Origin: a virus
Taxonomy: Duplodnaviria > Caudoviricetes
Reading direction: 5' to 3' (one strand)
Virus record (IMG/VR): IMGVR_UViG_3300030012_003842
Coordinates: 1 to 62,467 of that record
Length of the DNA: 62,467 nt
Position 1 is the stretch's first letter. Each line of letters begins with the position of its first letter. Under the pieces are notes generated by a model. It saw only the letters and a program-made list of their open reading frames with translations. It had not been told where the DNA came from and did no database searches. This document shows, piece by piece, positions 47,330 through 60,949 of the stretch. Position numbers and translations under genes: made by a program.

Positions 47330-47366
47330 AGAAGGGGGGATAAACCAAACTCACAAAAGCCCCCCT
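47328..47366 (-). terminator. Possible intrinsic terminator after the SSB-like gene
   Basis: Minus strand AGGGGGG...CCCCCCT followed by TCTTT; the loop is long. Confidence 0.4.
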
Positions 47367-47399
47367 AAATTATGCTGCGCCTTTCGGCTTCCAAAATTT

Positions 47400-47654: not shown

Positions 47655-47655
47655 A

Positions 47656-47823
47656 TTATTTAATTTTAATATTACGCTCCAAAATATTAACAGCATTTAG
47701 AATGGTTGTTTCCCTTTCCTCTTTGCTCATGTAGATAGTTGGAACTTCTATCCACAATTTTTTATCATCAGTTTTATACCTCCGTTTAAACGACCTATAG
47801 AACTTCTGTATATATGTAATCAT
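47656..47823 (-). CDS. Hypothetical protein
   Basis: Probable start at MITYIQ. Confidence 0.45.
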   Translation of the reverse strand: MITYIQKFYRSFKRRYKTDDKKLWIEVPTIYMSKEERETTILNAVNILERNIKIK

Positions 47824-48595
47824 TGATGTCGCAAGGCGCATCACTACTAAAAAATTTCTCATAAACTTTAATTGCTTTTTTAACATTGTCTTCCCCTTTG
47901 TCTATAAACTCTTGACTCGTAGGAAAAACTTTTAATAATCCATCGTTCTTACCTATAGCTACAAAGACAAACGGTTTACCAAACAACTGTTGGTATATGT
48001 AGGCTTGTGAATTGTAGCAATAAGCAGAACAAGAATGTCTAAACTTGAATATATCAGAGCTGGTTTTCAAATCCACGACAGCTCCGTCTGGATAATCCAT
48101 AATAAAAGTCTGACCATCGTGCTCAATCTCCAGCTCAAATGGTTCATGAACCAATACATCACACTTACCTTTGAACATGTGACCATGTATTTCTTTTATG
48201 TTAGGTACTTCATACTCAGTCTTATCACCATACACCAAATCAAACACGGTCCAGTTGCTTAACATCTTATCTACCAAGTTATCTAAAGCGTCCTTTTCTT
48301 TTGTTAAAAGCACATCGTATTGGTCAAGCTGTTGCTCAATCTTATACTGTTTAAACGCATTGGTAGTTCTTGATGAGGCATTGAATACTGGTATCGTGTC
48401 TATCTTTTCTGGCTCCAGAATTTTTGTATGAAAGTATCTTCCTTGTAATAAAGGTAAAGTCTTTTCTGATTTATTAAAGTCAGTAGGCTTGTAAAGTAAT
48501 TGTCTGATATTAGAAGCAGATAAAAACTGCTTACCAAACTTACCATAATACTCTGAATCCTTTTGTAGTTTCTTAAGTATCTTACTTCTTTCCAT
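47795..48595 (-). CDS. PD-(D/E)XK exonuclease (exonuclease VIII/DUF3799-like)
   Basis: LSASNI, GRYFH, KGKCD, VDLKTS, YNSQAYIY. Confidence 0.82.
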   Translation of the reverse strand: MERSKILKKLQKDSEYYGKFGKQFLSASNIRQLLYKPTDFNKSEKTLPLLQGRYFHTKILEPEKIDTIPVFNASSRTTNAFKQYKIEQQLDQYDVLLTKEKDALDNLVDKMLSNWTVFDLVYGDKTEYEVPNIKEIHGHMFKGKCDVLVHEPFELEIEHDGQTFIMDYPDGAVVDLKTSSDIFKFRHSCSAYCYNSQAYIYQQLFGKPFVFVAIGKNDGLLKVFPTSQEFIDKGEDNVKKAIKVYEKFFSSDAPCDINDYIYTEVL

Positions 48596-49166
48596 TAATA
48601 GCTTTCTTGAGTTTAGTTTTAATGGCAGGAGTTACCTTATACTTTGTTGACAGCTGTGCCACAATGTAATCCAAACCTTTATCTTTATTCTTAGCTACGT
48701 ACATCAAGACCTTGTCCCACTTGTCTGTAGTTAATTCAAAGGTTTGCTCCTTTTGAACAGGTTTATCTTTCGCCTCGTTTAAACGACCTGTGTCTTCCCC
48801 TATCCACAACGATAAACCAAGTCCGTGCATTGCAATAGCTTTAGCAGTAGCTCTTTGTATTGCATTGTTTACATCAAATGAAGTTATCTTTGTTAAAGGT
48901 ATAGAACGATTAGCGTTATCTAACACTGGCAGATAATCAATGTGTTCAATATCATTAATAACTATTCCAACTTTTACATTAGCAAACTTACCGTCTGTGA
49001 AATAAGGCATGCCCATTTCATTTTCATAAACGATTCTGTTTGCAGTTGGATACTCTTGCTTAACGTAATGCCAAGCCCAAGCCCAAGACAAGTAGTCATA
49101 CCTGCCTTTCTTTTCAACCTTATCGGCTACTGAGATTGCACTCAGATTTTTATAAACATTTTCCAT
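48582..49166 (-). CDS. Sak-like (DUF1071) single-strand annealing protein
   Basis: YLSWAWAW, LPVLD, AIAMHGLGLSLWIGED. Confidence 0.85.
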   Translation of the reverse strand: MENVYKNLSAISVADKVEKKGRYDYLSWAWAWHYVKQEYPTANRIVYENEMGMPYFTDGKFANVKVGIVINDIEHIDYLPVLDNANRSIPLTKITSFDVNNAIQRATAKAIAMHGLGLSLWIGEDTGRLNEAKDKPVQKEQTFELTTDKWDKVLMYVAKNKDKGLDYIVAQLSTKYKVTPAIKTKLKKAINGKK

Positions 49167-49167
49167 A

Positions 49168-49560
49168 TTATAATTTATTAAGTTCTGTTTTTAAATTTGT
49201 ATACTTATTAAGTAACGTTTCCCTGCGGTTCTTTAAGTTCTGAATATGCTTATCGTTCTTACGAGTATTCAATTCAGTCTTAATTCTTGACTCAATTATA
49301 GACAGCTTATGCAAGCAGTTGCTCATGCTAACTTGCGTACAACCCTTACGCCAGCCGTCTCTATAAAAGAAATCATACTCTTCATCGGAACACTCTTTAA
49401 AATAGTCACCGCCTTTTCCCATGTTGAGTATTTGTATACCGTCATCAAACTGTTGTATCTTCACACCCCTACCAATAACGCTTACACCTTTCGGTAAAAC
49501 ATTCTTAATACTTTTCGGGTCTTCCAAAGCTTGAATCATGATATCTTTGCGTTTAAACAT
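49168..49560 (-). CDS. Hypothetical protein
   Basis: 130-aa ORF within the operon. Confidence 0.65.
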   Translation of the reverse strand: MFKRKDIMIQALEDPKSIKNVLPKGVSVIGRGVKIQQFDDGIQILNMGKGGDYFKECSDEEYDFFYRDGWRKGCTQVSMSNCLHKLSIIESRIKTELNTRKNDKHIQNLKNRRETLLNKYTNLKTELNKL

Positions 49561-49561
49561 G

Positions 49562-49867
49562 CTATACTTTTAAATTCTGCAGCTCGATTAACTCAACGAT
49601 AGCCTTGTAGTCTTCATCTTCTTCAACCATTTTCTTAGCTTTCTTATAGCCATGAATGATAGTGGAATGAAAAACATCGCAGCCATGCTCTGCCATATAC
49701 CTTTGTATATAAGAAACTCTAATAGGTCTTTCCATACATAAGTAATAAAGCATTTGTCTGGCGTCAACCAAGTCTCTTCGTTTATCTTTATTAAACATCT
49801 CATCTAATTCAAGATGAAATTGTTTAGCTACTGCGTTTGCATACGCTTCAAATATATTACCTTTCAT
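49562..49867 (-). CDS. Second DnaA C-terminal-like helix-turn-helix protein
   Basis: KRRDLVDARQMLYYLC...HSTIIHGYKK. Confidence 0.75.
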   Translation of the reverse strand: MKGNIFEAYANAVAKQFHLELDEMFNKDKRRDLVDARQMLYYLCMERPIRVSYIQRYMAEHGCDVFHSTIIHGYKKAKKMVEEDEDYKAIVELIELQNLKV

Positions 49868-50190
49868 TATTTAAATTCTTTTAATTTTTGATTCTTTCCT
49901 TCAATCAAGATATCCTTGATTTTATTTTCTTCTTTCTTTACTTGCACCTTATATAATATAAGATAACCAATTAAGTCTTGAACCGTATCTTCAGTGAGGT
50001 CGTTTAAACCCTTCTGCTTTATCCTGCTAAGCTTGTCATCAATACGTGCAAGCAATCCTTCTTTTGGAGATAGCTTACTAAAAATTTGTGGTGGATTATT
50101 AGCCGTGTCACCATAGGCTTTGTTCTTTTCAAGTAGCAGAAGGACAACCTCCTTACCAACCTGTTTAATTAAGTCTTCAGTTTTAACCAT
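49867..50190 (-). CDS. Nucleotide modification associated domain 1-like (DUF1599-like) protein
   Basis: KNKAYGD, RIDDKLSRI, EDTVQDLIGYLIL. Confidence 0.75.
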   Translation of the reverse strand: MVKTEDLIKQVGKEVVLLLLEKNKAYGDTANNPPQIFSKLSPKEGLLARIDDKLSRIKQKGLNDLTEDTVQDLIGYLILYKVQVKKEENKIKDILIEGKNQKLKEFK

Positions 50191-50332
50191 AAATAATTTT
50201 TAATATTTCATATAATAAAAAAGCGAAGAAGCAAACAGCACAAAGACCAATAAGAAATTCCATGAATCTATATTGTCCTTCACGCTGTTTAAACGACCTA
50301 CCTTGTCTATATCTTTTATCTTCTTCTGTCAT
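50183..50332 (-). CDS. Small membrane protein (49 aa)
   Basis: Manually translated MTEEDKRYRQGRSFKQ... plus a hydrophobic helix; coupled at both ends. Confidence 0.6.
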   Translation of the reverse strand: MTEEDKRYRQGRSFKQREGQYRFMEFLIGLCAVCFFAFLLYEILKIIYG

Positions 50333-50502
50333 ATAAACAAGGGTGGTTCTTCATCGTTCTTACCCCAAGGAATAGGAGGAAGCTCTGGCTTAGGCTTAGG
50401 CTTCTCTTCTTTATCTTCTTCCTTGTCGATAGGAAACAAACTGTTAAGAAATTTATCAAACACTTTGTCCTGATATTTAAATTCGTTATTTAATTTCGCC
50501 AT
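50329..50502 (-). CDS. Small Pro-rich hypothetical protein (57 aa)
   Basis: Manually translated MAKLNNEFKYQDKVFDKFLN...; directly downstream of a promoter. Confidence 0.6.
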   Translation of the reverse strand: MAKLNNEFKYQDKVFDKFLNSLFPIDKEEDKEEKPKPKPELPPIPWGKNDEEPPLFI

Positions 50503-50523
50503 TTAATTTAATTTTAATTGTTG

Positions 50524-50555
50524 CAAATTTATACAATCTATTTATATTTTCCAAA
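50524..50555 (-). promoter_or_regulatory. Bacteroidota sigma-A promoter for the replication operon
   Basis: TTTG-N20-TAAATTTG on the minus strand. Confidence 0.7.
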
Positions 50556-50570
50556 CAATTTGCAAACAAA

Positions 50571-50804
50571 TTAATACCAAGGTTTATTCTCAATCGCATA
50601 CTCTCTAACGTCCGTGTGTACAGAATCATCTACATAATCCCAATAGAAATCCGTGATATCCTGACCGTTAAGCCATACTCCTTTTATAGTTAAGTCGTCT
50701 TCAGGGGGTTGATAGTAGTCACCATTATCCCAGTAATAAGAAAAGTCTATATGTAATGTATAGGTTTCTTCTTCTTTCACGTAGGTTCCTTGATACTTAC
50801 TCAT
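50571..50804 (-). CDS. Hypothetical early protein
   Basis: 77-aa acidic, aromatic ORF. Confidence 0.65.
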   Translation of the reverse strand: MSKYQGTYVKEEETYTLHIDFSYYWDNGDYYQPPEDDLTIKGVWLNGQDITDFYWDYVDDSVHTDVREYAIENKPWY

Positions 50805-51271
50805 AGTTGTAGTGGCTGTACGTTTAAACGATGTATAATCTCATGCTCTATCTCATCGTATTGTTTGTTAAAAAATTCTTGAGCGTCCTCAGTGTATTCC
50901 AAAGTGTCTGAATCATTATCTGCATAAGTCATGTGACCAAACTTCGCTTCGGTAACTCTGTTTGCAAGGTGACATATTACAGAAATAAAATCTGAATTGT
51001 CTACCACCCGCTCGTTTAAACGGACTTCAATATCATAGTCATCACGGAGCCCTGCAATAAGGTGAACCGTATACATGTTTTCGTGGACGTGGTCTAAGAG
51101 TTCTTGTATCTGACTTAAGTCATCAGAAGCTACCCAGCCTTTGCCCCACAGCATGTTAGCCACATTAGATAGTTCATTGTATCCAACAAAATGATACGTG
51201 CTCATGTATCGTTGGTCTAAGTCTATACTAATATAGTGTTCGCTTTTGTTTTTCATTTTTGCTTTTGCCAT
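50801..51271 (-). CDS. Hypothetical early protein
   Basis: 156-aa ORF with A-rich leader. Confidence 0.65.
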   Translation of the reverse strand: MAKAKMKNKSEHYISIDLDQRYMSTYHFVGYNELSNVANMLWGKGWVASDDLSQIQELLDHVHENMYTVHLIAGLRDDYDIEVRLNERVVDNSDFISVICHLANRVTEAKFGHMTYADNDSDTLEYTEDAQEFFNKQYDEIEHEIIHRLNVQPLQL

Positions 51272-51282
51272 ATAATAAAGTT

Positions 51283-51588
51283 TTAAAGGTTATAAAAATA
51301 TTCTGTTTCGTCACGGTGTTTAAACGCAATCTCTTGTGCTTCAAGTCGTTGGTCTGGGTGGACGCAAATGAATTTGATTTTCATAAAACAATTTGATGAA
51401 TCACCCCACACACAACGGTACTTAATCTTTGCTTGTCTTAGTTTCTTGCAGAAGCTATCGACTTCACTCGTTGCAGTCTCATGCCATTGGTCTGTAAAGT
51501 TACAACCACCAACAGCATTGACTGGCTCCAACCATGAACGCCACCCGTCCAGTCTGAAGACTTTTGTTTTTGTAGTATTAATATGCAC
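51283..51588 (-). CDS. Hypothetical early protein
   Basis: ORF track extends to 51654; probable start is the in-frame GTG overlapping the upstream gene end. Confidence 0.5.
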   Translation of the reverse strand: MHINTTKTKVFRLDGWRSWLEPVNAVGGCNFTDQWHETATSEVDSFCKKLRQAKIKYRCVWGDSSNCFMKIKFICVHPDQRLEAQEIAFKHRDETEYFYNL

Positions 51589-51904
51589 TGGCTTGTCTTT
51601 TTTGATTATCCTCATAGCTACATGAAGACCAGAAACAGTCATCATGAAAGCCATTGGTTAAATTATGATAGTATCTCTTCAGCTTTTCATTCAGCTTGTT
51701 TAAACGGTCTATGCTTTTCCAGTCTGGAACATTGCAATCACCGTCAACTCTTCCCAGCAAACCACCACCAAGATAGTTTTGATATGCCGTCATCTTTCCA
51801 TTTGGGTAGCCCCACTTTTTTAAGTCTATCTCAATGCCGCCACCACGTGGGCTTACCTCTTTGCGGATTATAGACTGTTCTATTCTCTTTACTCTCATAG
51901 CCAT
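51578..51904 (-). CDS. Hypothetical early protein
   Basis: 108-aa ORF containing AYQNYLGGG. Confidence 0.65.
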   Translation of the reverse strand: MAMRVKRIEQSIIRKEVSPRGGGIEIDLKKWGYPNGKMTAYQNYLGGGLLGRVDGDCNVPDWKSIDRLNKLNEKLKRYYHNLTNGFHDDCFWSSCSYEDNQKRQASAY

Positions 51905-52206
51905 ACGTGTGCTGATTTGATTTTATTTGGGTGTACCTCCCTTTCAATTATCTCTGTGCTTACGCCTTGAACTGATGAGTCTTTAAGCTTATAGCATTTA
52001 GTTAGCTGAATAAACTCTACGATTTTGCCCTGACGTTTAGTCGAGCTTAGGTGTTCAATAGCTTCTTTTAAAGTATCAAAAGACTTAGTCTTTTTGTTTG
52101 GGTTCTGCCATGTGTTGGCATGGGTCAATGCTTTACCTTTCCCATTATGTATTTCATAATGGTCAACGTCTTCAATGATTGTCCCGTAAATAATATTCTG
52201 TTCCAT
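51895..52206 (-). CDS. Hypothetical early protein
   Basis: 103-aa ORF. Confidence 0.6.
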   Translation of the reverse strand: MEQNIIYGTIIEDVDHYEIHNGKGKALTHANTWQNPNKKTKSFDTLKEAIEHLSSTKRQGKIVEFIQLTKCYKLKDSSVQGVSTEIIEREVHPNKIKSAHVWL

Positions 52207-52262
52207 ACGAATTTGATTTAATTATGCGTGGCGTTTAAACGGGTGCCACACTTTACCCTTTT

Positions 52263-52372
52263 AGTAATGGGTGGGGGACTCGAACCCCCACTGAAGCCTA
52301 CTCACTATCGTTCGAGCAACTAATATTTCTATTAGAACCGCTGTACTAATCTCGTGAGGTCTTCAACCCACC
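52263..52372 (-). ncRNA. tRNA-like structured RNA (acceptor stem and T arm, no canonical D/anticodon arms)
   Basis: GGUGGGU/ACCCAUU acceptor-like stem, GGGGG-UUCGAGU-CCCCC T arm, inner stems UGAAG/CUUCA, CUCAC/GUGAG and CUAAUA-GAAA-UAUUAG. Confidence 0.65.
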
Positions 52373-52422
52373 AACGGACTGCACAAAATTCATACACAAA
52401 ACAACAGTCCGTTTAAACGTCT

Positions 52423-52710
52423 TTACAATCTATCCATGAAGTCTTGTGCTAACTCCATTGGATTTGTAACATCTTCAAGTGCCCAGAACTCGATGAACTT
52501 TTCAGCGTCTTCATACACGCCTTCAAATATTTGTTCATCGGTTCGCCAACGTTTACGCTGGCCTTCACTCATGGTTTTGACTTTACCATTTTCTAAAAAA
52601 TTAAATCGACTAAAGCTTGTCGCTCCGTAATTAAAGAACACGTCTGATATACTGAACGTTGGGCTCGTCTGTAATAATTTTGTTTTAGTTTCACTTAATT
52701 TTCCAAACAT
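52423..52710 (-). CDS. Hypothetical early protein
   Basis: Probable start MFGKL (52710) after an A-rich leader. Confidence 0.6.
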   Translation of the reverse strand: MFGKLSETKTKLLQTSPTFSISDVFFNYGATSFSRFNFLENGKVKTMSEGQRKRWRTDEQIFEGVYEDAEKFIEFWALEDVTNPMELAQDFMDRL

Positions 52711-52753
52711 AATTTTTAATTTTAAGATTCGTGTGCAATATACAAAATGTTTT

Positions 52754-52906
52754 TTAATTGTGCAAGTTTTGTACATTAAAATTTATTTTTATTTGCTCAC
52801 CTTGTTTAAACGCACGCGACTTTTTTTCTGCAATGAGCCTGTTTAAACGCCTTTGCTCTCTTGCCTTATAAACCGCGTGCATTATTTGTCTTTCAATTCT
52901 GTGCAT
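52754..52906 (-). CDS. Small basic hypothetical protein (50 aa)
   Basis: Manually translated MHRIERQIMHAVYKAREQRRLNRL...; TAATG coupling to the upstream gene. Confidence 0.5.
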   Translation of the reverse strand: MHRIERQIMHAVYKAREQRRLNRLIAEKKSRAFKQGEQIKINFNVQNLHN

Positions 52907-53151
52907 TAGTTACGTCTTACAGTGTAGTCTTCATTGATGAGATGAAATACATCATTCCATACTTCAGACGGAACGTCAGCTTCCTTCATACAATCGTCTA
53001 TCCCTGCAAACAATCCGTCAACTGCTTTATCGTCAATCCCTCTTTGTTCGACTTGTTCGTACCAGTGAAATGCTTGCTCCTCTGTACTCCATTCTTCGAA
53101 AGGAACGCCTGCTTCTTCTTCGGCTTGTAAAATGTGATTTGGTTTTTCCAT
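52906..53151 (-). CDS. Acidic hypothetical early protein
   Basis: 81 aa; starts 24 nt after the predicted cut of ribozyme A. Confidence 0.65.
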   Translation of the reverse strand: MEKPNHILQAEEEAGVPFEEWSTEEQAFHWYEQVEQRGIDDKAVDGLFAGIDDCMKEADVPSEVWNDVFHLINEDYTVRRN

Positions 53152-53170
53152 AATATAAATTTTAAATTAA

Positions 53171-53242
53171 TAACTCCTGCACCGCGTTTAAACGGTGCAA
53201 CGCTTTGAGCTTAGTGTTCTGTTTATAGTCGCTCAATCGACT
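53171..53242 (-). ncRNA. Pistol ribozyme A (variant)
   Basis: P1 AGUCG/CGACU, pseudoknot UUGAG/CUCAA, AAA linker, UAAG and GCG core, P3 UUGCACCG/CGGUGCAG, G-A at the scissile position, 3-bp P2 AAC/GUU. Confidence 0.72.
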
Positions 53243-53742
53243 TACTCATCGTCCCATTCATACTGGTTGTACTCACTGTATTCAACATCTTCCCAATCGC
53301 CCAGAGTTGTCTCTTTCTTTCTGCAGTTGTTTAAATCATTAAGTAAATCAATAAAATGACCGATAGCCATGGTGTAATTTACAATGCGTTTAAACGACCC
53401 CTCTTTCAGCATGTTCTCTGCCTCTTGCCACATATCATATTCACATTGATACAGTTCTGAAGGGTCGCCCCATTCTGAATCCGCGCTGTGTAGCCAATAG
53501 ATATCATTACCTTGAGCGTCTGACTCTCTATCAATTACAAGAGTGTCTGAATCAGTGTGATAACCGCTTGAACCAGCGTAATAATTATTGTAGAGACAAT
53601 AGTCATTCTCTCTATCGCCTAATATCTCCCATTGCCACGGGCCATCGTCTGTATCAGTTAATACTGCAACGTTTAAACTGCTACTGTCTTCACAGTTCCA
53701 ACCGTTTTTTGTTCCGTAAATTTTTAATTCTTTTATTCTCAT
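53242..53742 (-). CDS. Acidic hypothetical early protein
   Basis: 166 aa, Asp/Glu/Trp/Tyr-rich; stop codon abuts ribozyme A. Confidence 0.7.
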   Translation of the reverse strand: MRIKELKIYGTKNGWNCEDSSSLNVAVLTDTDDGPWQWEILGDRENDYCLYNNYYAGSSGYHTDSDTLVIDRESDAQGNDIYWLHSADSEWGDPSELYQCEYDMWQEAENMLKEGSFKRIVNYTMAIGHFIDLLNDLNNCRKKETTLGDWEDVEYSEYNQYEWDDE

Positions 53743-54305
53743 GAGTTTTGAATTTTAGTTAATCTCTCTAATTTGTCTGAGTCGTTTAAACGGTCCCAGT
53801 CTGAGGGTGGTTCCCAATTTGGAATCTTGCTCCTCATTGTAGCAAATACAATCCTTTCTTTATACTTGACCGCTTGAGCTGTATCCTCCTTTTTATCATT
53901 CATTAAATCCCCCATTAATAGGAAAGCTTTCATTGAATTTAATATAGGGTCTGGCTCACCTTCACCGCTTTTAATAGCAAGTTTTAAATCAATAAGGTCT
54001 TGACCAAAGAAACCGCCAAGCTCACAAGTTTTAAAGTAGTTGTGAAGCGTTAATTTTCTCGCATCGTTTAAACGCTTCCAGTCACTGAATACATGTTTTC
54101 TGACAAGCTTCTTGTGGTGCTCAATCTCTTCATCAACAACCCTCAGCATTGAGGTTTTGTATCTGTAATCCTCCCAAGTTCTGTTGTTCCAATGTACAGA
54201 CGCTTTGCCTATCTCAACGCCATTAAAAAGAAGAGTTGAATCATGGCTGAAGCCGTTACGCCTGTTACGGCTTTCGTTTTTAATTTCAAAGTTTTTAAAT
54301 TTCAT
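53739..54305 (-). CDS. Hypothetical early protein
   Basis: 188 aa with GFSH and WNNRTWE motifs; starts 24 nt after the ribozyme B cut. Confidence 0.7.
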   Translation of the reverse strand: MKFKNFEIKNESRNRRNGFSHDSTLLFNGVEIGKASVHWNNRTWEDYRYKTSMLRVVDEEIEHHKKLVRKHVFSDWKRLNDARKLTLHNYFKTCELGGFFGQDLIDLKLAIKSGEGEPDPILNSMKAFLLMGDLMNDKKEDTAQAVKYKERIVFATMRSKIPNWEPPSDWDRLNDSDKLERLTKIQNS

Positions 54306-54324
54306 ATAGTATAAATTTTAGTTA

Positions 54325-54393
54325 AACAACGGACAACGTTTAAACGCTGTCCCGCTTTGGGCCTAATGCTCTTTTTATTGTCGCCCAAACGAC
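54325..54393 (-). ncRNA. Pistol ribozyme B
   Basis: P1 GUCG/CGAC, pseudoknot UUUGGG/CCCAAA, P2 AGCA/UGUU, UAGG and GCG core, P3 GGACAGCG/CGUUGUCC, GU cleavage dinucleotide at 54330/54329. Confidence 0.88.
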
Positions 54394-54599
54394 TCTTTAA
54401 ATTCTTGCAACCATAACCAGCCTAACATGTACAATAGAAAGCCTTGAAAGGCTAACAGTAGACCGAACACAAGCAACGCAATAAGCCCGTCAATTTGTGT
54501 GGCTACATGGAACATCATTCGCAGTGCTGAAATCCCAACGAATAACGCACAAAGGCCAAGGATAATTGTTTGAATCTGTTTTGATATTTTATTTTCCAT
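54375..54599 (-). CDS. Small two-TM membrane protein
   Basis: Two hydrophobic helices; last codons overlap P1 of ribozyme B. Confidence 0.65.
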   Translation of the reverse strand: MENKISKQIQTIILGLCALFVGISALRMMFHVATQIDGLIALLVFGLLLAFQGFLLYMLGWLWLQEFKESFGRQ

Positions 54600-54625
54600 A
54601 TTATTAGTATTAAATTAAACTCCGT

Positions 54626-55135
54626 TTAAACGTCCTCCCTCCCAAACTCAGGGTTTGGCTTGTCACCGTCCAGCCCCGCGGTTAAAACTCCGTAAATCAC
54701 TTTGTCAAATAACTCGTTATAAATTGGCGTGTATTTGTCAAACTTTTCGTAATCCCCATAATGCAGGTAATCCGTCAAGAAATTTTCCAGCCTTTGGACT
54801 TCTCTGCCCGCGTCTGCATGCGCGTAAATGAAATTAATCATTCTTTTGTAGTAAGGCTTTATAAAAATTTCTGTGTCGCTTGTAGGGTTGCCGTAATCGT
54901 CACAATCCCATGAATCGTAATCCTGAACGTTACAATTTCCGTTATTATAAAAATCATAACTTAGACGGCCAATCGCTCTTATTAATTCACCGTGTACAGT
55001 TGGCGCGTCACCGCTTGAAGGTACCAGCTTTTTATTTAGCTTTTTGTACTCTTCAGAATAGGCACCAGTACCAGCCCAATAGCTACAGCCTTTAGGCGTG
55101 GTTTTCATTTGTGGTTTTTCAATAGTATTTTTCAT
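54626..55135 (-). CDS. Hypothetical early protein
   Basis: LVPSSG...GELIRAIGRLSYDFYNNGN; start moved to ATG 55135, 24 nt after the ribozyme C cut. Confidence 0.7.
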   Translation of the reverse strand: MKNTIEKPQMKTTPKGCSYWAGTGAYSEEYKKLNKKLVPSSGDAPTVHGELIRAIGRLSYDFYNNGNCNVQDYDSWDCDDYGNPTSDTEIFIKPYYKRMINFIYAHADAGREVQRLENFLTDYLHYGDYEKFDKYTPIYNELFDKVIYGVLTAGLDGDKPNPEFGREDV

Positions 55136-55154
55136 ATAGTATAAATTTTGATTA

Positions 55155-55224
55155 AACAACCTGAGCCGTTTAAACGGCTCAACGCTTAGGGCTTAATGTA
55201 CTATTTCAAGTCGCCCTAACGACC
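55155..55224 (-). ncRNA. Pistol ribozyme C
   Basis: GGUCG-UUAGGG-CGACU-UGAAAUAG-UACA-UUAAG-CCCUAA-GCG-UUGAGCCG(UUUAAA)CGGCUCAG-GU-UGUU; core nearly identical to the env25 pistol as I recall it. Confidence 0.92.
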
Positions 55225-55321
55225 CCAAACCTTTGACGAATTGTCGCCATTCTTTGCGCGTTAGTTTAGCGCGCTTGCGTGCTTTCGTTTGTCTGTTTGG
55301 CTTTGAGATTTTTAATATCAT
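55193..55321 (-). CDS. Small basic protein (42 aa) ending inside ribozyme C
   Basis: Manually translated MILKISKPNRQTKARKRAKLTRKEWRQFVKGLGSLGRLEIVH; shares the AAAATTTATAC leader. Confidence 0.55.
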   Translation of the reverse strand: MILKISKPNRQTKARKRAKLTRKEWRQFVKGLGSLGRLEIVH

Positions 55322-55342
55322 AGTGTATAAATTTTAATTAAT

Positions 55343-55366
55343 AAAAGGGGCGCGTTTAAACGCCCC
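55343..55366 (-). terminator. Terminator-like hairpin containing GTTTAAAC
   Basis: GGGGCG-TTTAAACG-CGCCCC-TTTT after the first early gene. Confidence 0.55.
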
Positions 55367-55373
55367 GTGATTT

Positions 55374-56003
55374 TTACTCATCGCGTTCATTGTCCATGTG
55401 ACCACCGCAACCCGTAGGGCATTCAATGTGGTCCTCAAGCTTGTTGATATTCATTCTTGACGTCCTGAAACTGAACCCGCAACAATTACAGCTGACCTTC
55501 AAATTTCTGACCCCGTCTTTACGTCCGCCCGTCATAACCTTAGCATGAGGGAACAAGCCTAACGGCTTTATAACGTTAGCTTTTAGATAATCTTCAAGCC
55601 ATTCTGTTTCAGTTGTCGCGGTCATTTTACCCGTCAACCCTACAGCTGTGGCGCAACGTTTAAACGGTGCCCCGTGACCGCTTGCGCAATCATCAACGGC
55701 ATGTACTAACTCATGAACAAGAACGCCTAAAATTCGAAGCGTACCCTTCAATGTTGAGCCGTCTAAATATGGGGTGATATTTACTTGATTAATTCCGCTA
55801 TCGCAAAGACCTGTTGGAAAGCATTGCCCCAATACCTTGACGCCTTGCCCGTATTTGGTTCTGTTTCCTCTGGTTGCCCACGATACAGATAATTGAACTT
55901 TTGGGACTTTGTATCCCTTCTGTTTAAACAGCCCCTTTCTTAGTATATCCGTAGCGTTTTCTAAGTAGGTCTCTCTGTTAGATTTTGACTTTTTATGTCT
56001 CAT
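55374..56003 (-). CDS. SprT-like zinc metalloprotease with C-terminal Zn-ribbon
   Basis: VLVHELVH, GHGAPFK, CNCCG...CPTGCG. Confidence 0.75.
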   Translation of the reverse strand: MRHKKSKSNRETYLENATDILRKGLFKQKGYKVPKVQLSVSWATRGNRTKYGQGVKVLGQCFPTGLCDSGINQVNITPYLDGSTLKGTLRILGVLVHELVHAVDDCASGHGAPFKRCATAVGLTGKMTATTETEWLEDYLKANVIKPLGLFPHAKVMTGGRKDGVRNLKVSCNCCGFSFRTSRMNINKLEDHIECPTGCGGHMDNERDE

Positions 56004-56032
56004 AATTGTATAAATTTTGTGTTAAACTTGTA

Positions 56033-56062
56033 CAAATATAGTAAATATTTCGTTTATACAAA
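56033..56062 (-). promoter_or_regulatory. Early Bacteroidota sigma-A promoter
   Basis: TTTG-N18-TATATTTG on the minus strand, ~30 nt before ATG 56003. Confidence 0.7.
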
Positions 56063-56069
56063 CTATTTA

Positions 56070-56480
56070 TTTAAAAAGATTTGTAAAAATATTATCATGC
56101 ACCTGCTGATTTGGTTGTAACTTGCTGACTTTCAGTGACTTAACCTGTTGATAACTTTATCTTTTTTTTTATGATTTGTTTTGTCTTTTGATTTATCGGG
56201 CGGGCATAACGGGGGAAATCCTTTTATCTCTTCAATCAAAAAACGTCAAACCTTCCCCCGCCCCTCAGCCCGTTTAAACGCTTAGGCCCTAACAACGTTT
56301 AAACAATGCGCGCGCTTTTGCGGTCAACCTCGAGCCCGTTTAAACGCACAGCAAAAAGCTAAAAAAATCGAGAAAAAATTTTTAAAATTTGTTTTGACCG
56401 ACAAAATATTTTGACTTTTTGTTAGGGGGGTGGCAAACGTATAACGGGGTATTACCCTGAACTCCCAGATATCTAATAAA
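56070..56480. other. Long non-coding divergence region, candidate genome end/packaging or origin region
   Basis: Strand switch, A/T tracts interleaved with GC blocks, edge of the GTTTAAAC gradient. Confidence 0.45.
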
Positions 56481-56487
56481 AATTTAT

Positions 56488-56495
56488 TATCTTTG
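56488..56495 (+). promoter_or_regulatory. Bacteroidota -7 promoter element
   Basis: TATCTTTG 16 nt before ATG 56512. Confidence 0.55.
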
Positions 56496-56511
56496 ATAAA
56501 AATTAAAAGCT

Positions 56512-56709
56512 ATGAGCATAAACAATTACGTAGACGGATTATACATTAAGGATGGTAGGTTAATAAACGACAGGCCTTCATCTGAATCAGGAATAGCAAG
56601 AGCAGCTTCTATTAAGAGGTCTGTAAAAAACGATAGAAAGATTAATCAAATTGCTGAAGGTATTCAACTTGCAGAAGATAAGAAGAACTTCAGACAGTTA
56701 GAATTTTAA
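56512..56709 (+). CDS. Hypothetical protein
   Basis: 65 aa with its own promoter element and terminator. Confidence 0.65.
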   Translation: MSINNYVDGLYIKDGRLINDRPSSESGIARAASIKRSVKNDRKINQIAEGIQLAEDKKNFRQLEF

Positions 56710-56748
56710 AAAACAAATTTCCCTATTTGTTCTGTTTTGATTTGAGTG

Positions 56749-56782
56749 AAAGAGAGTTTCTTAATTGAAACTCTTTTTTTTT
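56749..56782 (+). terminator. Intrinsic terminator
   Basis: AAGAGAGTTTC/GAAACTCTTTT stem followed by a T run. Confidence 0.7.
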
Positions 56783-56945
56783 GTCATACCTATGACAATA
56801 ATATGACAATATAGTTTTATGTAACTTCTTGATTTTCAATTACTTATTTATTTTATGACGACTATGACGACTTAAATATAAAATTAATATATATAAAATA
56901 TAATATAAAAAGAAAAATATATATATGTAAATTTGCAGAAAATAA

Positions 56946-56976
56946 TTTGTCATGTTCGTCACAATTTGTATATTTG
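56946..56976 (+). promoter_or_regulatory. Consensus Bacteroidota promoter for groEL
   Basis: TTTG-N19-TATATTTG. Confidence 0.75.
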
Positions 56977-57001
56977 AAAAGTTCTAATTAAATTAAATAA
57001 A

Positions 57002-58603
57002 ATGAATAAGCAAGGTTACATTCCAAAGAATCTGCATTTCGATTCTGAAGGCAGACAGAAACTAATATCAGGAATTGAAAAAATTTCCAACGCAGTTAAA
57101 TCTACATTAGGCCCACGCGGACAAACAGTTATAATAGAAAGCACCGAGCATCTTAGCGGAATGACCATTACTAAAGATGGAGTGACCGTGGCTCGTAGTA
57201 TTTATTTAGACGACCCTGTAGAAAATATAGCAATACAAATTATGAAAGACGCTTCCAATCGTACAGCTAACTCAGCTGGTGATGGAACAACTACAGCAAT
57301 CGTATTGGCAGAAGCCTTTGTCAAGGCAGGTCTTAAGTATATGATACCAAATAATAATACCACACAAGTGGTCAGACATATTAATAACATTGTCAAAGAC
57401 ATTGTAAAGTATTTAGAAAAAAATTCAAAGAAGATAACTAATAGTAGTCTATTAGATGTCGCTAAGATATCAGCCAATAATGATGCAGAGATAGGTAAGT
57501 TAATATTCGATGCTTATCAAAAAGTTGGAAAGGACGGAATCGTTACTGTTGAGCGTTCTCAAAACCATGAGACTTTCGCTGAAGTAACTAACGGTATCAA
57601 AGTAGACAGAGGATATTCATCTAACCTGTTCATCAATAATCAAAAGAAGGACGAGTGTATATTAGAAAATGTAAGGGTCCTTGTGTGTGACCAAGACATT
57701 AATAACATACTTCAAATAGAAAGTGTGTTGAAACCTATCATTCAAAAAAGCGAGACCTTGCTTATCATCGCTGATTGCGGAACGAATGTGGTAAATACAC
57801 TTGCAGCAAATGTCGTAAGAAACGGTTTGAAGCTGTGTAATATACCGACTCCTTCCTTTGGTTATAAAAAACATGAGCTGATGCAAGACATAGCTTTGAC
57901 ATTAGGAGCTAAGTATCTGTCAGAAAAAACTGGTGACGATTTATCTACATTATCAGAAGCTGACTTAGGAAGAGCTGATAAAATTATTGTAGGTAAATCA
58001 AACTCTGTTCTCATTACTAACAATGAACCAAGTGAAGAATTGAAAATGAGAATAGCTGAACTACGTGTTCAAAAAGAAAATACTGAGACACCACAAGAAA
58101 GAAAGTTTATAGATGAAAGAATAGCCAGCTTAGCTGGAGCTATCGGGTGTATCTACGTTGGTGGTAACTCAGATGTAGAACAAAAAGAAAAATTTGACCG
58201 AGTCGATGACTCGGTATGTGCAGTGCGTTCCGCACTGGAAGAAGGGATTGTTGCTGGAGCTGGACTTGCATTATACAATGCTTCAAAAACTATTGTAAGT
58301 CATGATAAAGATGCTGACTATAATACAGCATGTAATATTGTTAGAGAAGCTATAGTTCAACCACTAATACAAATATTAGAAAACGCAGGCATCAATCCTG
58401 AAAATATATTATCAGAAATAAATGATAAGAAAAAAAATTACGGCTTTGACGTAAAGAATGAAAAGTTTGGAGATTTATTTAAGCTGGGTGTTATTGACCC
58501 GTTGAAAGTTACAAAGAACGCTTTAATAAATTCAAGTAGTGTGGCAGCAACAATATTATCAACCAATGCAATCGTAACCCATGCCAGAGTCAAAGAATCA
58601 TAA
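57002..58603 (+). CDS. groEL: Chaperonin GroEL
   Basis: STLGPRG, ITKDGVTVA, AGDGTTTA, GIVAGAG, GVIDPLKVT; lacks the GGM tail. Confidence 0.96.
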   Translation: MNKQGYIPKNLHFDSEGRQKLISGIEKISNAVKSTLGPRGQTVIIESTEHLSGMTITKDGVTVARSIYLDDPVENIAIQIMKDASNRTANSAGDGTTTAIVLAEAFVKAGLKYMIPNNNTTQVVRHINNIVKDIVKYLEKNSKKITNSSLLDVAKISANNDAEIGKLIFDAYQKVGKDGIVTVERSQNHETFAEVTNGIKVDRGYSSNLFINNQKKDECILENVRVLVCDQDINNILQIESVLKPIIQKSETLLIIADCGTNVVNTLAANVVRNGLKLCNIPTPSFGYKKHELMQDIALTLGAKYLSEKTGDDLSTLSEADLGRADKIIVGKSNSVLITNNEPSEELKMRIAELRVQKENTETPQERKFIDERIASLAGAIGCIYVGGNSDVEQKEKFDRVDDSVCAVRSALEEGIVAGAGLALYNASKTIVSHDKDADYNTACNIVREAIVQPLIQILENAGINPENILSEINDKKKNYGFDVKNEKFGDLFKLGVIDPLKVTKNALINSSSVAATILSTNAIVTHARVKES

Positions 58604-58841
58604 TAGAAAACATTTTGGAGTGAAACCAAGAAAAAGTCTTGAGGGTTATCCATTAAAACAAATTTCAAAAAATTCATCCATTAGGTTTATAGCTGAATAC
58701 AAACAAAAAGTATTCTTAGAAAAACTATTTAAAAAAAATACAATCGACTTCAATAATTATTTTAAAGATAGTCGAAGAATAGAGAAGGGAAAAAGATTTA
58801 AATTAATAGAAACTGAAAATCATTATTATGGCAATATATAA
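58581..58841 (+). CDS. Hypothetical basic protein
   Basis: ORF between groEL and groES. Confidence 0.4.
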   Translation: MPESKNHNRKHFGVKPRKSLEGYPLKQISKNSSIRFIAEYKQKVFLEKLFKKNTIDFNNYFKDSRRIEKGKRFKLIETENHYYGNI

Positions 58842-58980
58842 TTATCTATTTGAAATTGCGAGAGAAGAAAGAAAGAAAGAAGAAGAAGCTATAAAGTTTT
58901 TGCAAAGCAAAGGCTATGTAATTTCAAACAAGAAACAAACTTACGCAAGTAAGAAAAAAAAATATGCAAGCAGTAAATAA
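58828..58980 (+). CDS. Small hypothetical protein (50 aa)
   Basis: Manually translated MAIYNYLFEIAREERKKEEEAIKFLQSKGYVI... Confidence 0.5.
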   Translation: MAIYNYLFEIAREERKKEEEAIKFLQSKGYVISNKKQTYASKKKKYASSK

Positions 58981-59221
58981 GTATATAGTTATAAAAAAAA
59001 TAAACGAAGAGTACAAAACAAAATCTGGACTCTTACTATCTAACGAGGACATGTCTTCGCTTAGGTATCACAAAGCTTTAGTTGTAAATCCTGGAACTAA
59101 TGTTGAAACAGTAAAAAAGAATGATGTAATATTATTTGATAAAGCTGCGGGACATTCTATGGTTATAGACGACAATACATATACAGTGATAGAAGAAAGA
59201 GATGTAGTAGTAGTACTATAG
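58964..59221 (+). CDS. groES: Co-chaperonin GroES
   Basis: KTKSGLLL mobile loop, VKKNDVILF, VIEERDVVVVL. Confidence 0.88.
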   Translation: MQAVNKYIVIKKINEEYKTKSGLLLSNEDMSSLRYHKALVVNPGTNVETVKKNDVILFDKAAGHSMVIDDNTYTVIEERDVVVVL

Positions 59222-59665
59222 TCTATTTTCTTGGTTTATTTTTTTCATATAATTTCTGTATACCTTATCTCTATACTTGACGTCATGTTTAAACACTGGG
59301 TTGTTTACTGAGTTCTCAGGAATATCTTCACCATTCAACTTAGCATAAACATTACTTATCATTCGTTTGGCCTGAAACGTAAGCTCGTATAAAGCAGCTT
59401 CGTTTCCCTTTTTAGGTCTCCACTTATGTATCCAACCCCTTTTAATTAAATCATAAAACCTATTGGTGTTCCAAGACATCAACTCATTGTATTCTTCAAA
59501 CTTGGTTTTGGTAAATAGATGTTCGCTATATAAAAACAACATGAGCTCTAAGTCACCCGTTGTTATATCATATTTACGTTTAGCCCAGTATTTAATTACT
59601 TTCCAGTATTTTAAATAATCATGTTCAGGCTGCTTACGTGTAGTGTTTCGTACGATGATAGGCAT
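59216..59665 (-). CDS. Putative winged-helix transcription regulator
   Basis: ITTGDLELMLFLY...LIKRGWI...LYELT pattern; lone inverted gene. Confidence 0.55.
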   Translation of the reverse strand: MPIIVRNTTRKQPEHDYLKYWKVIKYWAKRKYDITTGDLELMLFLYSEHLFTKTKFEEYNELMSWNTNRFYDLIKRGWIHKWRPKKGNEAALYELTFQAKRMISNVYAKLNGEDIPENSVNNPVFKHDVKYRDKVYRNYMKKINQENRL

Positions 59666-59688
59666 AAATTATATTAGATTAAATTATT

Positions 59689-59707
59689 TATCTTTGTTAC
59701 AAAGATA
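59689..59707. promoter_or_regulatory. Palindromic face-to-face pair of -7 promoter elements
   Basis: TATCTTTGT-T-ACAAAGATA gives TATCTTTG on both strands. Confidence 0.6.
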
Positions 59708-59719
59708 TAATAAAATCAA

Positions 59720-59857
59720 ATGGCTCGTAAAAATGTAAGTACCTATGTATTTCGTTCTCGTAAAAAAAGACCAGGAGTGCATTCAAAGAACAGACATACG
59801 AACCAGAAGAACGGAAAGTATTATACAGGAACTAAATATAAAGGCCAAGGAAGATGA
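59720..59857 (+). CDS. Small basic protein ending YKGQGR (45 aa)
   Basis: Manual translation; first gene after the promoter. Confidence 0.65.
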   Translation: MARKNVSTYVFRSRKKRPGVHSKNRHTNQKNGKYYTGTKYKGQGR

Positions 59858-60024
59858 GTAAATTGTCAATAAAAAAACCAAAGAAGGGAAGTAAAATTTG
59901 TCCAGCAGGAATAGCTTGGGCTAAAAGAACTTTTGATAAATACCCGTCTGCGTATGCAAACATGGCGGCAAGTAAATATTGTAAAGACCCAAATTACGCT
60001 AAGGGTAAAAAGAAAAAGAAATAG
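59854..60024 (+). CDS. Small basic protein with YPSAYAN motif (56 aa)
   Basis: Manual translation; ATGA coupling. Confidence 0.65.
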   Translation: MSKLSIKKPKKGSKICPAGIAWAKRTFDKYPSAYANMAASKYCKDPNYAKGKKKKK

Positions 60025-60026
60025 TT

Positions 60027-60245
60027 ATGGCAGACGATTTAAAATGTAAATTAAAAATATTGGGTCCAGACCCAAATAACCCAAAAAGACCTGCAAGGTT
60101 TTCTGGTGACCCATCAAAAAGGAAAGCACAGAAAATGAAATTAGCTGCTTGCAGAAGCGGTAAAAGACAAGACTTCAAGAATAAAATTCTTGATAAAGGA
60201 AAAGATTTAGTAAACAAAGTTGAAAGTAAAATTAAAAAATCATGA
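60027..60245 (+). CDS. Small basic protein
   Basis: 72-aa ORF in a packed cluster. Confidence 0.55.
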   Translation: MADDLKCKLKILGPDPNNPKRPARFSGDPSKRKAQKMKLAACRSGKRQDFKNKILDKGKDLVNKVESKIKKS

Positions 60246-60949
60246 TGAAAAAACCTATGCTTAATGCCATACAGAAAGTTAAAATGTCCATGGCAATGAA
60301 ATCGAAAAATCCCAAGATGAATCCTGGGTTTGACTCTTTACCAAAAGAAGTTCAAAATAAAATTATGAAAAAGAAAGCAAAGCTTTCTATGAAAAAGAAA
60401 CCTAAGATGGCTATGAAGAAACCTAAAATGGGTGGAATGAAAAAAACTATGATGGCTATGAAAACCAAGGAGCCAAAGATGGCTATGAAAAAGCCAGCCA
60501 TGATGGGTATGAAAAAGCCAGCTTCTACAAAAAGAGGTAATAAAATTAAAACCTATAATATAAGTGGCTTTGTATCTAAACATACAGGATTAAAGCCTGG
60601 TAGCTATGAAAAAGCTGTAATTATGAATGGCGTGAGAAATGCAGCACCGTCTCGTAGAAAAAAGATTATGGAACTTTTAAAAAGCAATGCTGGTACAGCT
60701 GATATGTTTAAAACAACCAAGCCTAAGATGTCAATGAAGAAGCCAATGCTGTCTAAGTCTAAAAAGAAATCTATGTCTAAAGAGCTGAAAAAAGGTAGTA
60801 AGGAAAGTAAAAAGGTATTACAAGGTTATTTTGGTCCTGGAAAAAAACCTAAGATGGCAATGAAGAAGAAGCCTAAAATGGCAATGAAGAAAGCTAAAGC
60901 AAGTCAAACAGCTGGAGCTATAATGAAAAGAGAAAGAATGATGAACTAA
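60242..60949 (+). CDS. Lys/Met-rich repeat protein
   Basis: Many K-P/A-K-M-A/S-M-K-K units. Confidence 0.7.
   Translation: MMKKPMLNAIQKVKMSMAMKSKNPKMNPGFDSLPKEVQNKIMKKKAKLSMKKKPKMAMKKPKMGGMKKTMMAMKTKEPKMAMKKPAMMGMKKPASTKRGNKIKTYNISGFVSKHTGLKPGSYEKAVIMNGVRNAAPSRRKKIMELLKSNAGTADMFKTTKPKMSMKKPMLSKSKKKSMSKELKKGSKESKKVLQGYFGPGKKPKMAMKKKPKMAMKKAKASQTAGAIMKRERMMN

Follow-up and report, generated by a model that had tools for sequence, protein, structure and literature searches.

Predicted pistol ribozymes at a near-constant distance from start codons in the early operon of a probable Bacteroidota phage

The sequence considered here, which we call the window, is an entire IMG/VR virus record, IMGVR_UViG_3300030012_003842 (Duplodnaviria; Caudoviricetes), of 62,467 bases from a marine phage, with an estimated completeness of 99% and a G+C content of 34.8%. 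Structural and packaging genes (terminase, portal, virion protein) lie on its plus strand, and replication and early genes, among them a primase with a BT4734-like N-terminal domain, an SNF2-type helicase, and a PDDEXK-like protein, lie on its minus strand from about 56.0 to 42.6 kb. Our subject is the head of this early operon, where three predicted self-cleaving ribozymes of the pistol family each place their cut 24 nucleotides (nt) before the ATG of the next gene.

All features of the operon are on the minus strand and are described in the direction of transcription. A promoter match at 56062–56033 (TTTG element of the −33 region at 56062–56059; −7 box, TATATTTG, at 56040–56033) is followed by a predicted primary leader at 56004–56028, ending in AAAATTTATACAATT, and by the first early gene (55374–56003), whose 209-amino-acid (aa) product contains an HExxH motif and has a Cys-rich tail. 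This protein belongs to PHROG 6361 (unknown function, E 8.8e-27) and has a weak, sub-threshold match to an SprT-like Pfam family; these were the only matches when eight early proteins were compared with Pfam and PHROGs. Next come a terminator-like GC hairpin at 55347–55366 (seven pairs, six of them GC, with GTTTAAAC in its loop and TTTTATTAAT after it), for which Rfam gave no match at E≤1, and an AU-rich 25-nt spacer (55322–55346), homologous to the pistol leaders and carrying the same AAAATTTATAC motif, which leads to the ATG of a small open reading frame (ORF) of 42 aa (55193–55321). Relatives have homologous ORFs of 41–48 aa after the same hairpin.

The first ribozyme, pistol 1, is followed by leader 1 (55136–55159, 24 nt), whose first U is the junction base and whose next four bases are the 3′ strand of helix P2, and then by a 169-aa gene without a recognized family (54626–55135), which has its stop codon inside a GTTTAAAC and a homologue (72% identity) behind a pistol with a 24-nt leader in the related contigs L125/L126. 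A 74-aa ORF (54375–54599) begins 26 nt past that stop, with no ribozyme before it. Pistol 2 and leader 2 (54306–54329, 24 nt) precede a 188-aa gene of no known family (53739–54305), homologues of which stand behind pistols in many relatives with leaders of 23 or 24 nt, and a 166-aa gene (53242–53742) overlaps its stop (ATGA). Pistol 3 and leader 3 (53152–53175, 24 nt) precede an 81-aa gene, again without a family (52906–53151), after which the cistrons overlap or abut and have no leader motif. No promoter match of the type TTTG...TAnnTTTG was found on the minus strand from 56033 to 52900, and the downstream genes therefore depend on read-through.

The ORFs upstream of the ribozymes end on the ribozymes themselves. 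Their stops are at 55195–55193, 54377–54375, and 53244–53242: the first is the conserved UAA at positions 30–32 of pistol 1, the second the UAA at positions 18–20 of pistol 2, and the third overlaps pistol 3, its last base being the first base of the ribozyme. In the window and its relatives (the clade), the upstream stop is a conserved UAA of the ribozyme at position 18 in ten junctions and at position 30 in eight. A ribosome terminating there would cover part of the pistol fold, so translation and folding may compete.

A cmscan of all 62,467 bases against Rfam gave three matches above the gathering score, all to Pistol (RF02679; gathering score 34.5 bits), all on the minus strand, and all covering model positions 1–68 of 68; no other Rfam family reached its cut-off in the window. 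A scan of 42000–57200 at E≤1 found no further ribozyme class and only one 17-nt piece resembling the 3′ end of tmRNA. Pistol 1 (55224–55155, 60.9 bits) has its predicted cut between 55160 (G) and 55159 (U), pistol 2 (54394–54325, 61.7 bits) between 54330 (G) and 54329 (U), and pistol 3 (53242–53171, 59.9 bits) between 53176 (G) and 53175 (A). Self-cleavage in this family depends on Mg2+ and leaves 2′,3′-cyclic phosphate and 5′-OH ends. The scissile bond lies within a 2-nt junction from P3 to the 3′ strand of P2 (Harris 2015, PMC4604425) and has been assigned to G53–U54 (PMC6154101). The length of this junction is strictly conserved, whereas its nucleotide identity is variable (Harris 2015, PMC4604425). 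In the cmscan alignments the junction has 2 nt in all three copies: the usual GU in pistols 1 and 2, and GA in pistol 3, which also has two extra bases in its P3 loop. Because junction identity varies in the family, and because G|A junctions occur in unrelated phage pistols too (among the matches listed), the G|A junction of pistol 3 is no defect.

The conserved unpaired nucleotides (J1/2 AAA..A, UA, and GC...AGCG) match the upper-case consensus of the cmscan alignment in all three copies. A covariance model of our own, built from the window copies and rebuilt from 48 phage pistols, gave matches that coincide with those of Rfam wherever both were checked (10 of 10 in one comparison and, in a second, 29 further Rfam matches in 15 loci of relatives). 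Across 36 distinct clade sequences, in an alignment fitted to the model and hence favouring P1–P3, pairing is present in 96% of the pair cells and changes on both sides are seen in 17 of 23 pairs, a level reached by none of 500 shuffles; by helix, changes on both sides affect two of four pairs in P1, three of four in P2, and all eight in P3. The pseudoknot between the P1 loop and the P2–P3 junction, whose six pairs are absent from the model and were added by hand, is paired in 95.2% of cases, with compensatory changes in four of the six pairs. Its partners in the window are UUAGGG/CCCUAA, UUUGGG/CCCAAA, and AUUGAG/CUCAA, the third copy having five pairs and an A–A mismatch in the outermost position, and these three copies alone already show compensatory changes in the pseudoknot and P3. 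Judged from their sequences, all three are unexceptional pistols in each feature tested, with predicted catalysis, and the compensatory changes indicate that the ribozymes are under selection.

Two variants of the fold deserve mention. In three pistols of related contigs (L127:1692–1860, L131:4120–4295, and L152:1100–1279), about 55 nt have been inserted in the P3 loop immediately behind GTTTAAAC; their P3 is still closed and their 24-nt leader kept. In the window itself, 5′ of the early promoter and between two more copies of GTTTAAAC, the minus-strand stretch 56296–56263 resembles a pistol with its middle deleted: bases of the P1 loop are joined straight to their pseudoknot partner and AGCG, and a P3-like hairpin follows. 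This stretch, which neither Rfam nor our own models scored, may be a decayed ribozyme.

Between the predicted starts of the 3′ products (55159, 54329, and 53175) and the ATGs that follow (55135, 54305, and 53151) there are 24 nt in each case. The first-pass annotation had reported these three distances together with the leader sequences, and both were reproduced from the cmscan alignments. Its choice of start codons also holds: pistols 2 and 3 have no alternative in-frame start between the upstream stop and the ATG, and pistol 1 has just one in-frame alternative, a TTG with which the cut product begins. With only 2 of 24 bases different, leaders 1 and 2 are paralogous copies that amount to one observation. 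In leader 3, the shared motif is shifted by 2 nt, lying 12 nt from the cut (cut to AAAATTTATA) and 2 nt from the ATG, as against 10 and 4 nt in the other two.

Relatives were sought with a pattern that included the P3-loop palindrome and nothing 3′ of it. Viral contigs contributed 4 matching stretches and metagenome contigs 27, and in these, with the window included, our model finds 56 pistols. The 54 of these that have a 3′ end reduce to 40 distinct junctions (ribozyme, leader, and first 12 residues), in each of which we counted the bases between the cut and the first ATG that begins an ORF of 30 aa or more; for L127:1692, L131, and L152, three of the 40, the P3 insertion had stopped the model early and the cut was re-set by eye. 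Twenty-four junctions have 24 nt, ten have 25, four have 23, one has 22, and one has 16; when the three junctions of the window are set aside (37 remaining), 24 nt is found in 21, with the other classes unchanged (25 in 10, 23 in 4, 22 in 1, 16 in 1). Conservation of the spacing in homologous phages, which the annotation had proposed as a check, is thus borne out as a range of 23–25 nt in 38 of 40 junctions, but not as an exact value of 24 nt (full range 16–25).

Among these junctions are 26 unique leader sequences, of which 24 have 23–25 nt, and about 13 unrelated gene families stand downstream. The shared motif AAATTTATA occurs at several offsets from the cut and to the ATG, namely (11,4), (13,2), (14,2), (10,4), and (17,−1), and the total stays at 23–25 nt. 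The other flank of the ribozymes provides an internal control: counted from the first base of the ribozyme, the upstream stop codon begins at places ranging from −29 to +36, and the 3′ side alone is fixed. Unrelated genes can have identical leaders, one gene family occurs behind both G|U and G|A pistols, and the order of pistol–gene cassettes differs between the window and L125, from which we conclude that the ribozyme–leader unit has been copied and swapped. The ‘exactly 24’ of the window is partly a matter of common ancestry, and since the whole clade peaks at 24 nt, three equal values in one genome are unremarkable. The narrow clade peak at 24 ± 1 nt is the real signal.

The leader of the first gene, which has a promoter rather than a ribozyme before it, is similar. 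Bacteroidota sigma-A promoters have TTTG near −33 and, in Flavobacterium psychrophilum, TAnnTTTG at −12 to −5 (PMC9723704; consensus also in PMC7366714), and this consensus is present upstream of gene 56003 as TTTG, 18 nt, and TATATTTG. Setting the box at −12 to −5 predicts transcription to start at 56028 and a leader of 25 nt; the start at 56027 favoured by the annotation gives 24 nt. In seven distinct junctions (window included), the same box stands 28–29 nt before the homologous first-gene ATG, which predicts leaders of 24–25 nt, and all of these end in the same AAATTTATACA(A)TT; the similar promoter-proximal leader that had been proposed is thereby confirmed as a prediction, in both length and 3′ motif. 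For other predicted promoters of the clade, the leaders come to 16–28 nt. A scan for sigma-70-type promoters returned 29 AT-rich matches against 14.7 expected, to which we give no weight for a host with Bacteroidota-type promoters.

Folding each leader with 36 nt of coding sequence (35 nt for the primary leader) gave minimum free energies of 0, −2.4, and −1.1 kcal/mol for 3′ products 1, 2, and 3 (z against shuffles +1.35, +0.03, and +1.14) and −1.6 kcal/mol for the primary leader (z +0.69). In the uncut RNA, too, the start region has no strong pairing and the leaders pair weakly. The leaders had been described as structure-free; they are indeed unstructured, because of their AU-rich composition, but no more so than shuffled sequences, and cleavage does not unmask the ATG. 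The idea that cutting exposes the start codon by melting a structure is accordingly ruled out, the products folding like shuffles and the leaders being only weakly paired before the cut.

The host is probably a member of the Bacteroidota. When the primase was used in a tblastn search, 27 of 27 matches with a named host (34 matches in total) were phages of Bacteroidota, infecting Flavobacterium, Polaribacter, Cellulophaga, Maribacter, and Bacteroides. A Shine–Dalgarno (SD)-like 4-mer occurs at −20 to −4 in 1 of 62 ORFs of the phage, compared with 7.4% of random windows, and the A content upstream of its ORFs is 56–66% at −14 to −10, in agreement with the A enrichment at −11 to −15 published for Bacteroidota (PMC7366714). 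Both figures bear out, for this phage, the annotation's statement that Bacteroidota largely initiate without SD pairing, on A-rich leaders. The median length of the 5′ untranslated region (UTR) is 24 nt in F. psychrophilum (PMC9723704), and the commonest 5′ UTR length in Bacteroides thetaiotaomicron is 23 nt (PMC7366714).

Promoter matches of the same TTTG...TAnnTTTG type, a further pointer to such a host, precede the early operon and the gene divergent from it across a common intergenic region, a plus-strand chaperonin-like gene at 57002–58603 (Cpn60_TCP1, E 4.7e-60). The chaperonin-like gene has its own TTTG...TATATTTG match 25 nt 5′ of its ATG; it is kept in relatives and labelled groEL in phage MW202828.1. 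A blastn search with 52800–56300 against the phage collection gave no match, and searches for relatives with the 188-aa and 169-aa proteins gave none and one locus, respectively, the latter a contig found already.

The early operon of the window also contains a junction without a ribozyme. From the hairpin at 55366–55347 it is 25 nt to the start of the small ORF at 55321, and seven distinct hairpin junctions of that kind in the clade (window included) have distances of 23, 23, 24, 25, 25, 25, and 26 nt; nine other non-pistol rows of the same scan (12, 14, 14, 14, 27, 27, 27, 36, and 59 nt) are antisense to a pistol P3 or intragenic. A terminator scan, which returned 14 sites against 3.6 expected from shuffles, flags this hairpin with its tail TTTTATTAAT and, in pistols 1 and 2, also the P3 hairpins, whose tails GTTGTTTAAT and GTTGTTTAAC have an interrupted U-run. 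One copy of GTTTAAAC lies in the P3 loop of each pistol. The window has 46 copies of this palindrome, compared with 15 for the next commonest 8-mer palindrome and, by our own estimate from base composition, roughly 2 expected; 25 are in 50–56.4 kb, most copies are intragenic, often as CGTTTAAACG, and its density in relatives is just as high (10 copies in 2.6 kb of L123). It could be an RNA hairpin or a protein-binding DNA site.

A more distant relative with hairpins in similar places is MW202828.1, a 60.9-kb freshwater phage with 68% identity in the primase and the same divergent layout of chaperonin and early operon. In the part examined (L274), a 16-nt perfect palindrome, GTGTCGTTAACGACAC, occurs 14 times in 19 kb (e.g. 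2807, 3074, 3410, 3862, and 4152); nine copies lie before early ATGs at 8, 15, 16, 16, 16, 19, 19, 23, and 39 nt, and others are intragenic. This palindrome looks like the counterpart of the GTTTAAAC hairpins of the window, and since no pistol accompanies it in that part, junctions of a hairpin and a short leader seem to be older in this group than the ribozymes.

For comparison, we drew a broad sample of unrelated pistols from 80 viral and 80 genomic loci, with ORFs called by a simple rule (an ATG-initiated ORF of at least 30 aa) and no gene finder. It holds 158 pistols with a 3′ end, 150 of them distinct, and all counts given for it refer to the matches listed. An ORF begins within 8 nt of the cut in 5 of the 150. 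Leaders without an SD-like motif have a median of 26.5 nt (n=30) and those with such a motif one of 40 nt (n=31; Mann–Whitney p=0.009), and 12 of the 30 SD-less leaders have 19–28 nt. As SD-less leaders are the shorter ones, the length of a pistol leader appears to follow the host's mode of initiation, or the type of its start region. Pistols labelled as Bacteroidota have leaders of 16 (or 25, from a second in-frame ATG), 19, 19, 20, 23, and 25 nt and also of 35, 35, 50, 74, 80, and 1 nt, and one has no ORF. Some of the phage contigs carry several pistols, each close to the ORF behind it and with leaders of nearly equal length within a contig: L062 has pistols at 3222–3294 and 4909–4977 (leaders 24 and 25 nt), L190 has four (leaders 35 and 35 nt), and L061 has four (leaders 31–39 nt). 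Arrays of ribozyme–leader cassettes may thus be a wider habit of phages.

From these comparisons, the best-supported description, read from sequence, is that the early operon is built of junction modules in which what appears to be the same SD-less start region of about 24–25 nt stands behind a promoter, a ribozyme cut, or a plain hairpin, and that two of these three kinds of boundary, the promoter start and the ribozyme cut, would create an RNA 5′ end at −24/−25, matching the host norm. We go further and propose, with a probability of about one half, that the ribozymes split the early transcript into messages that have a standard SD-less leader. The interpretation offered in the first-pass annotation, that cleavage gives internal genes a standard leader resembling a primary transcript end, is to this extent partly supported.

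The proposal would work as follows. The host RNA polymerase would read the early operon leftward from the Bacteroidota-type promoter near 56040, and the pistols in the operon gaps, acting as working ribozymes, would each cut the long transcript once. The upstream piece would end in a folded ribozyme with a 2′,3′-cyclic phosphate, and the downstream piece would begin with a 5′-OH and a leader of 24 nt (23–25 in relatives), of which the first five bases would be the junction base and the 3′ strand of P2 and the rest the AU-rich, SD-less start region typical of early genes in the clade, with an A-run at about −14 to −11 followed by UUUAUAC. With only four pairs in P2, the product should leave the ribozyme quickly. 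An internal cistron would thereby become a stand-alone message, its translation and decay uncoupled from those of the upstream gene, and its 5′ end would lie at the distance predicted for the primary transcript of the operon (24–25 nt) and near the Bacteroidota norm. Cleavage in infected cells, the polycistronic transcript, and better translation or stability from a 5′ end at −24 are all inferred, and the compact cyclic-phosphate 3′ end of the upstream message may matter as much as the downstream 5′ end. One metatranscriptome run (X1) yields an assembled 271-nt contig at 54444–54713 and a 37-nt piece near 56054–56090; this run and a second one of unstated kind (X2) hold parts of the window as assembled contigs, which are neutral on cleavage.

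Several observations weigh against this proposal. Proximity to a start codon is no general property of pistols, 84 of the 150 distinct unrelated ones lacking any ATG-initiated ORF of 30 aa or more in the 60 nt that follow, and even the pistols labelled as Bacteroidota span 1–80 nt. Within the clade, one junction has a leader of 16 nt and one of 22 nt, and the junctions, to judge from their sequences, are homologous rather than independent, so that part of the constancy in length is inherited. The hairpin before the small ORF shows that a spacing of about 24 nt is not specific to a ribozyme cut, and, being terminator-like and placed after the first gene, it could limit the supply of transcript to the ribozymes. 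Other cistrons of the early operon overlap or abut their neighbours and so do not need a 5′ end for translation, and in MW202828.1, despite its similar operon, a search of 19,114 bases (41737–60850) found no pistol at E≤1.

The same facts can be read in other ways, which are not fully exclusive of the proposal or of each other. Some 24–25 single-stranded bases might simply be the room a ribosome needs beside any folded element, structure being packed against the start region because the genome is compact, and cleavage would then serve another purpose (e.g. a protected 3′ end for the upstream message) or none. The ribozyme-less hairpin (55366–55347) and the base of P3 in all three pistols of the window are equally 25 nt from the ATG, and the clade repeats this pattern, with 23–26 nt in its seven ribozyme-less hairpin junctions and 17–26 nt in 31 pistol P3 junctions (30 of them at 24–26); the upstream ORFs extend into the ribozymes, which leaves no spare base, and the predicted accessibility of the ATG is unchanged by cleavage. 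Yet the predicted primary leader of the first gene is just as long with no structure upstream of it, the hairpins of MW202828.1 stand at shorter and variable distances (8–39 nt), so that 25 nt is no hard minimum, and the maintenance of a catalytic fold by compensatory changes would be left unexplained. We regard this explanation as unlikely, though to be taken seriously. An improbable one, in our judgement, is that the ribozyme–leader boundary has merely been copied between cassettes by recombination and that 24 nt is the length of a founder on which no selection acts. Such copying fits the near-identity of leaders 1 and 2 (2 of 24 bases), the identical leaders before unrelated genes, the gene family found behind both G|U and G|A pistols, and the cassette order that differs between the window and L125, and leaders that have diverged only moderately would be expected to have few insertions or deletions anyway. 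Inheritance alone sits badly with 26 different leaders, some with only about half their bases in common, of which 24 are still 23–25 nt long, with an internal motif that moves by 2–7 nt while the total length is held, with a 5′ flank of the same modules that varies over 65 nt, and with the clustering of unrelated SD-less leaders (12 of 30 at 19–28 nt).

It is very improbable, in our estimate, that the GTTTAAAC palindrome or its hairpin is itself the functional unit, as a weak intrinsic terminator (P3 followed by GUUGUUUAA) or as a DNA site for a phage protein, with the pistol fold secondary. The U-rich tails behind P3 of pistols 1 and 2 in the terminator scan, the abundance of the palindrome (46 copies against 15 for the next, 25 of them in 50–56.4 kb), and the different 16-nt palindrome in the same kind of position in the pistol-less relative would suit it. 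Neither a terminator nor a DNA site requires the covariation of P1, the pseudoknot, and P2, however, and the U-tract is interrupted, most copies of GTTTAAAC are intragenic and far from starts, and no phage RNA polymerase was recognized in six large ORFs searched with PHROG (four of them with Pfam). One of the six, an ORF of 2191 aa, also has no DxDxD motif. Hairpin promoters for a virion RNA polymerase were rejected as a candidate for the same want of a polymerase family in the scanned ORFs, T7-like polymerases having been checked by Pfam alone.

Two elements outside these junctions were also observed. In the early operon, a 216-nt ORF-free gap at 52422–52207 (minus strand), flanked by two GTTTAAAC hairpins, contains GGGGGTTCGAGTCCCCCACC (T-arm-like, 52289–52273), which weakly matches the 3′ end of a tmRNA model (14.1 bits, E 0.034); ARAGORN called no tRNA or tmRNA, and the gap could hold a tRNA-like element or an attachment-site core. 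In gut Clostridia (Oscillospiraceae and Lachnospiraceae), a conserved element of about 60 nt stands behind the pistol cut in place of an ORF and consists of a hairpin, GAAGCC, and GGTTTGATACACCTGT-like bases (L154, L163, L164, L165, L168, L216, and some 25 more loci), for which Rfam gave no family in four such loci scanned.

Returning to the proposal that cleavage creates standard leaders, a broader form of it would make the pistols of Bacteroidota phages in general self-contained generators of mRNA 5′ ends, by which internal cistrons mimic primary transcripts with a 5′ end at the distance from the AUG that the host prefers, about 24 nt. We put this forward tentatively, as possible rather than probable. 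If it is true, ribosome loading in SD-less hosts senses the 5′ end or the length of the leader, and ribozyme, leader, and gene together form a portable expression cassette exchanged by phages. The function of most genome-encoded ribozymes was still described as an open question in a 2019 review (PMC6765202), and the clade offers this question in testable form: the distance from cut to AUG equals the predicted primary leader and the published modal 5′ UTR of the host phylum, and three ribozymes share one operon; a ribozyme-less hairpin and a promoter followed by the same leader serve as natural controls within these genomes. Pistols as a family are known; the cassette with fixed spacing was not found in print. 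Our literature search found no report of a conserved distance from pistol cut to start codon or of pistols in Bacteroidota phages, the discovery paper with its supplements and Lihanova & Weinberg 2021 lying outside that search.

The pistol family has been known since 2015 and is well characterized in chemistry and structure. The elements described here share with the family (RF02679; Harris 2015, PMC4604425) its P1, 6-bp pseudoknot, P2, P3, and 2-nt scissile junction and its association with phages, and one tested pistol came from Alistipes putredinis, itself a member of the Bacteroidota (PMC4604425). The family has no assigned biological role, whereas the window has three copies in one operon, each abutting a start region at 24 ± 1 nt; its copies also differ in that upstream ORFs end on conserved UAA triplets, in one G|A junction, and in a P3 loop that always contains GTTTAAAC. 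Processing of polycistronic bacterial mRNAs has been suggested for hammerhead and twister ribozymes, a suggestion said there to need ‘additional work’ (PMC6765202), and the idea is the same, that cutting between cistrons yields pieces of different stability or translation; the ribozyme classes are different ones, and the available part of that review reports no fixed geometry to start codons. For hammerheads in the UTRs of fungal and plant RNA viruses, cleavage is reported by the authors to be essential for translation initiation (bioRxiv 10.1101/2024.05.16.594327). There, too, a short intergenic UTR is taken up by a viral ribozyme whose cut lies a few bases ahead of an ORF (7 nt in one case), but the hosts are eukaryotic, translation is cap-independent, the genomes are RNA, and the ribozyme class is another.

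If cleavage matters for expression, the cassettes would be a natural counterpart of synthetic ribozyme insulators, a new handle on the SD-less start of translation in Bacteroidota, and a source of ready expression parts for Flavobacteriia and Bacteroides, where standard tools perform poorly. Insulators of the RiboJ type, reportedly introduced by Lou et al. in 2012, likewise place a self-cleaving ribozyme before a gene and give it a uniform short 5′-OH leader whatever lies upstream; they are engineered, hammerhead-type, equipped with an added hairpin, and used in SD-dependent hosts, whereas the elements of the window are natural pistols in an SD-less setting. The glmS ribozyme, which cleaves in a bacterial 5′ UTR in dependence on a metabolite and whose 5′-OH marks the message for decay, is similar in being a 5′ UTR ribozyme with a 5′-OH product of altered fate; decay and a metabolite govern that system, whereas what we propose for the window is a positive effect, with nothing to imply a ligand.

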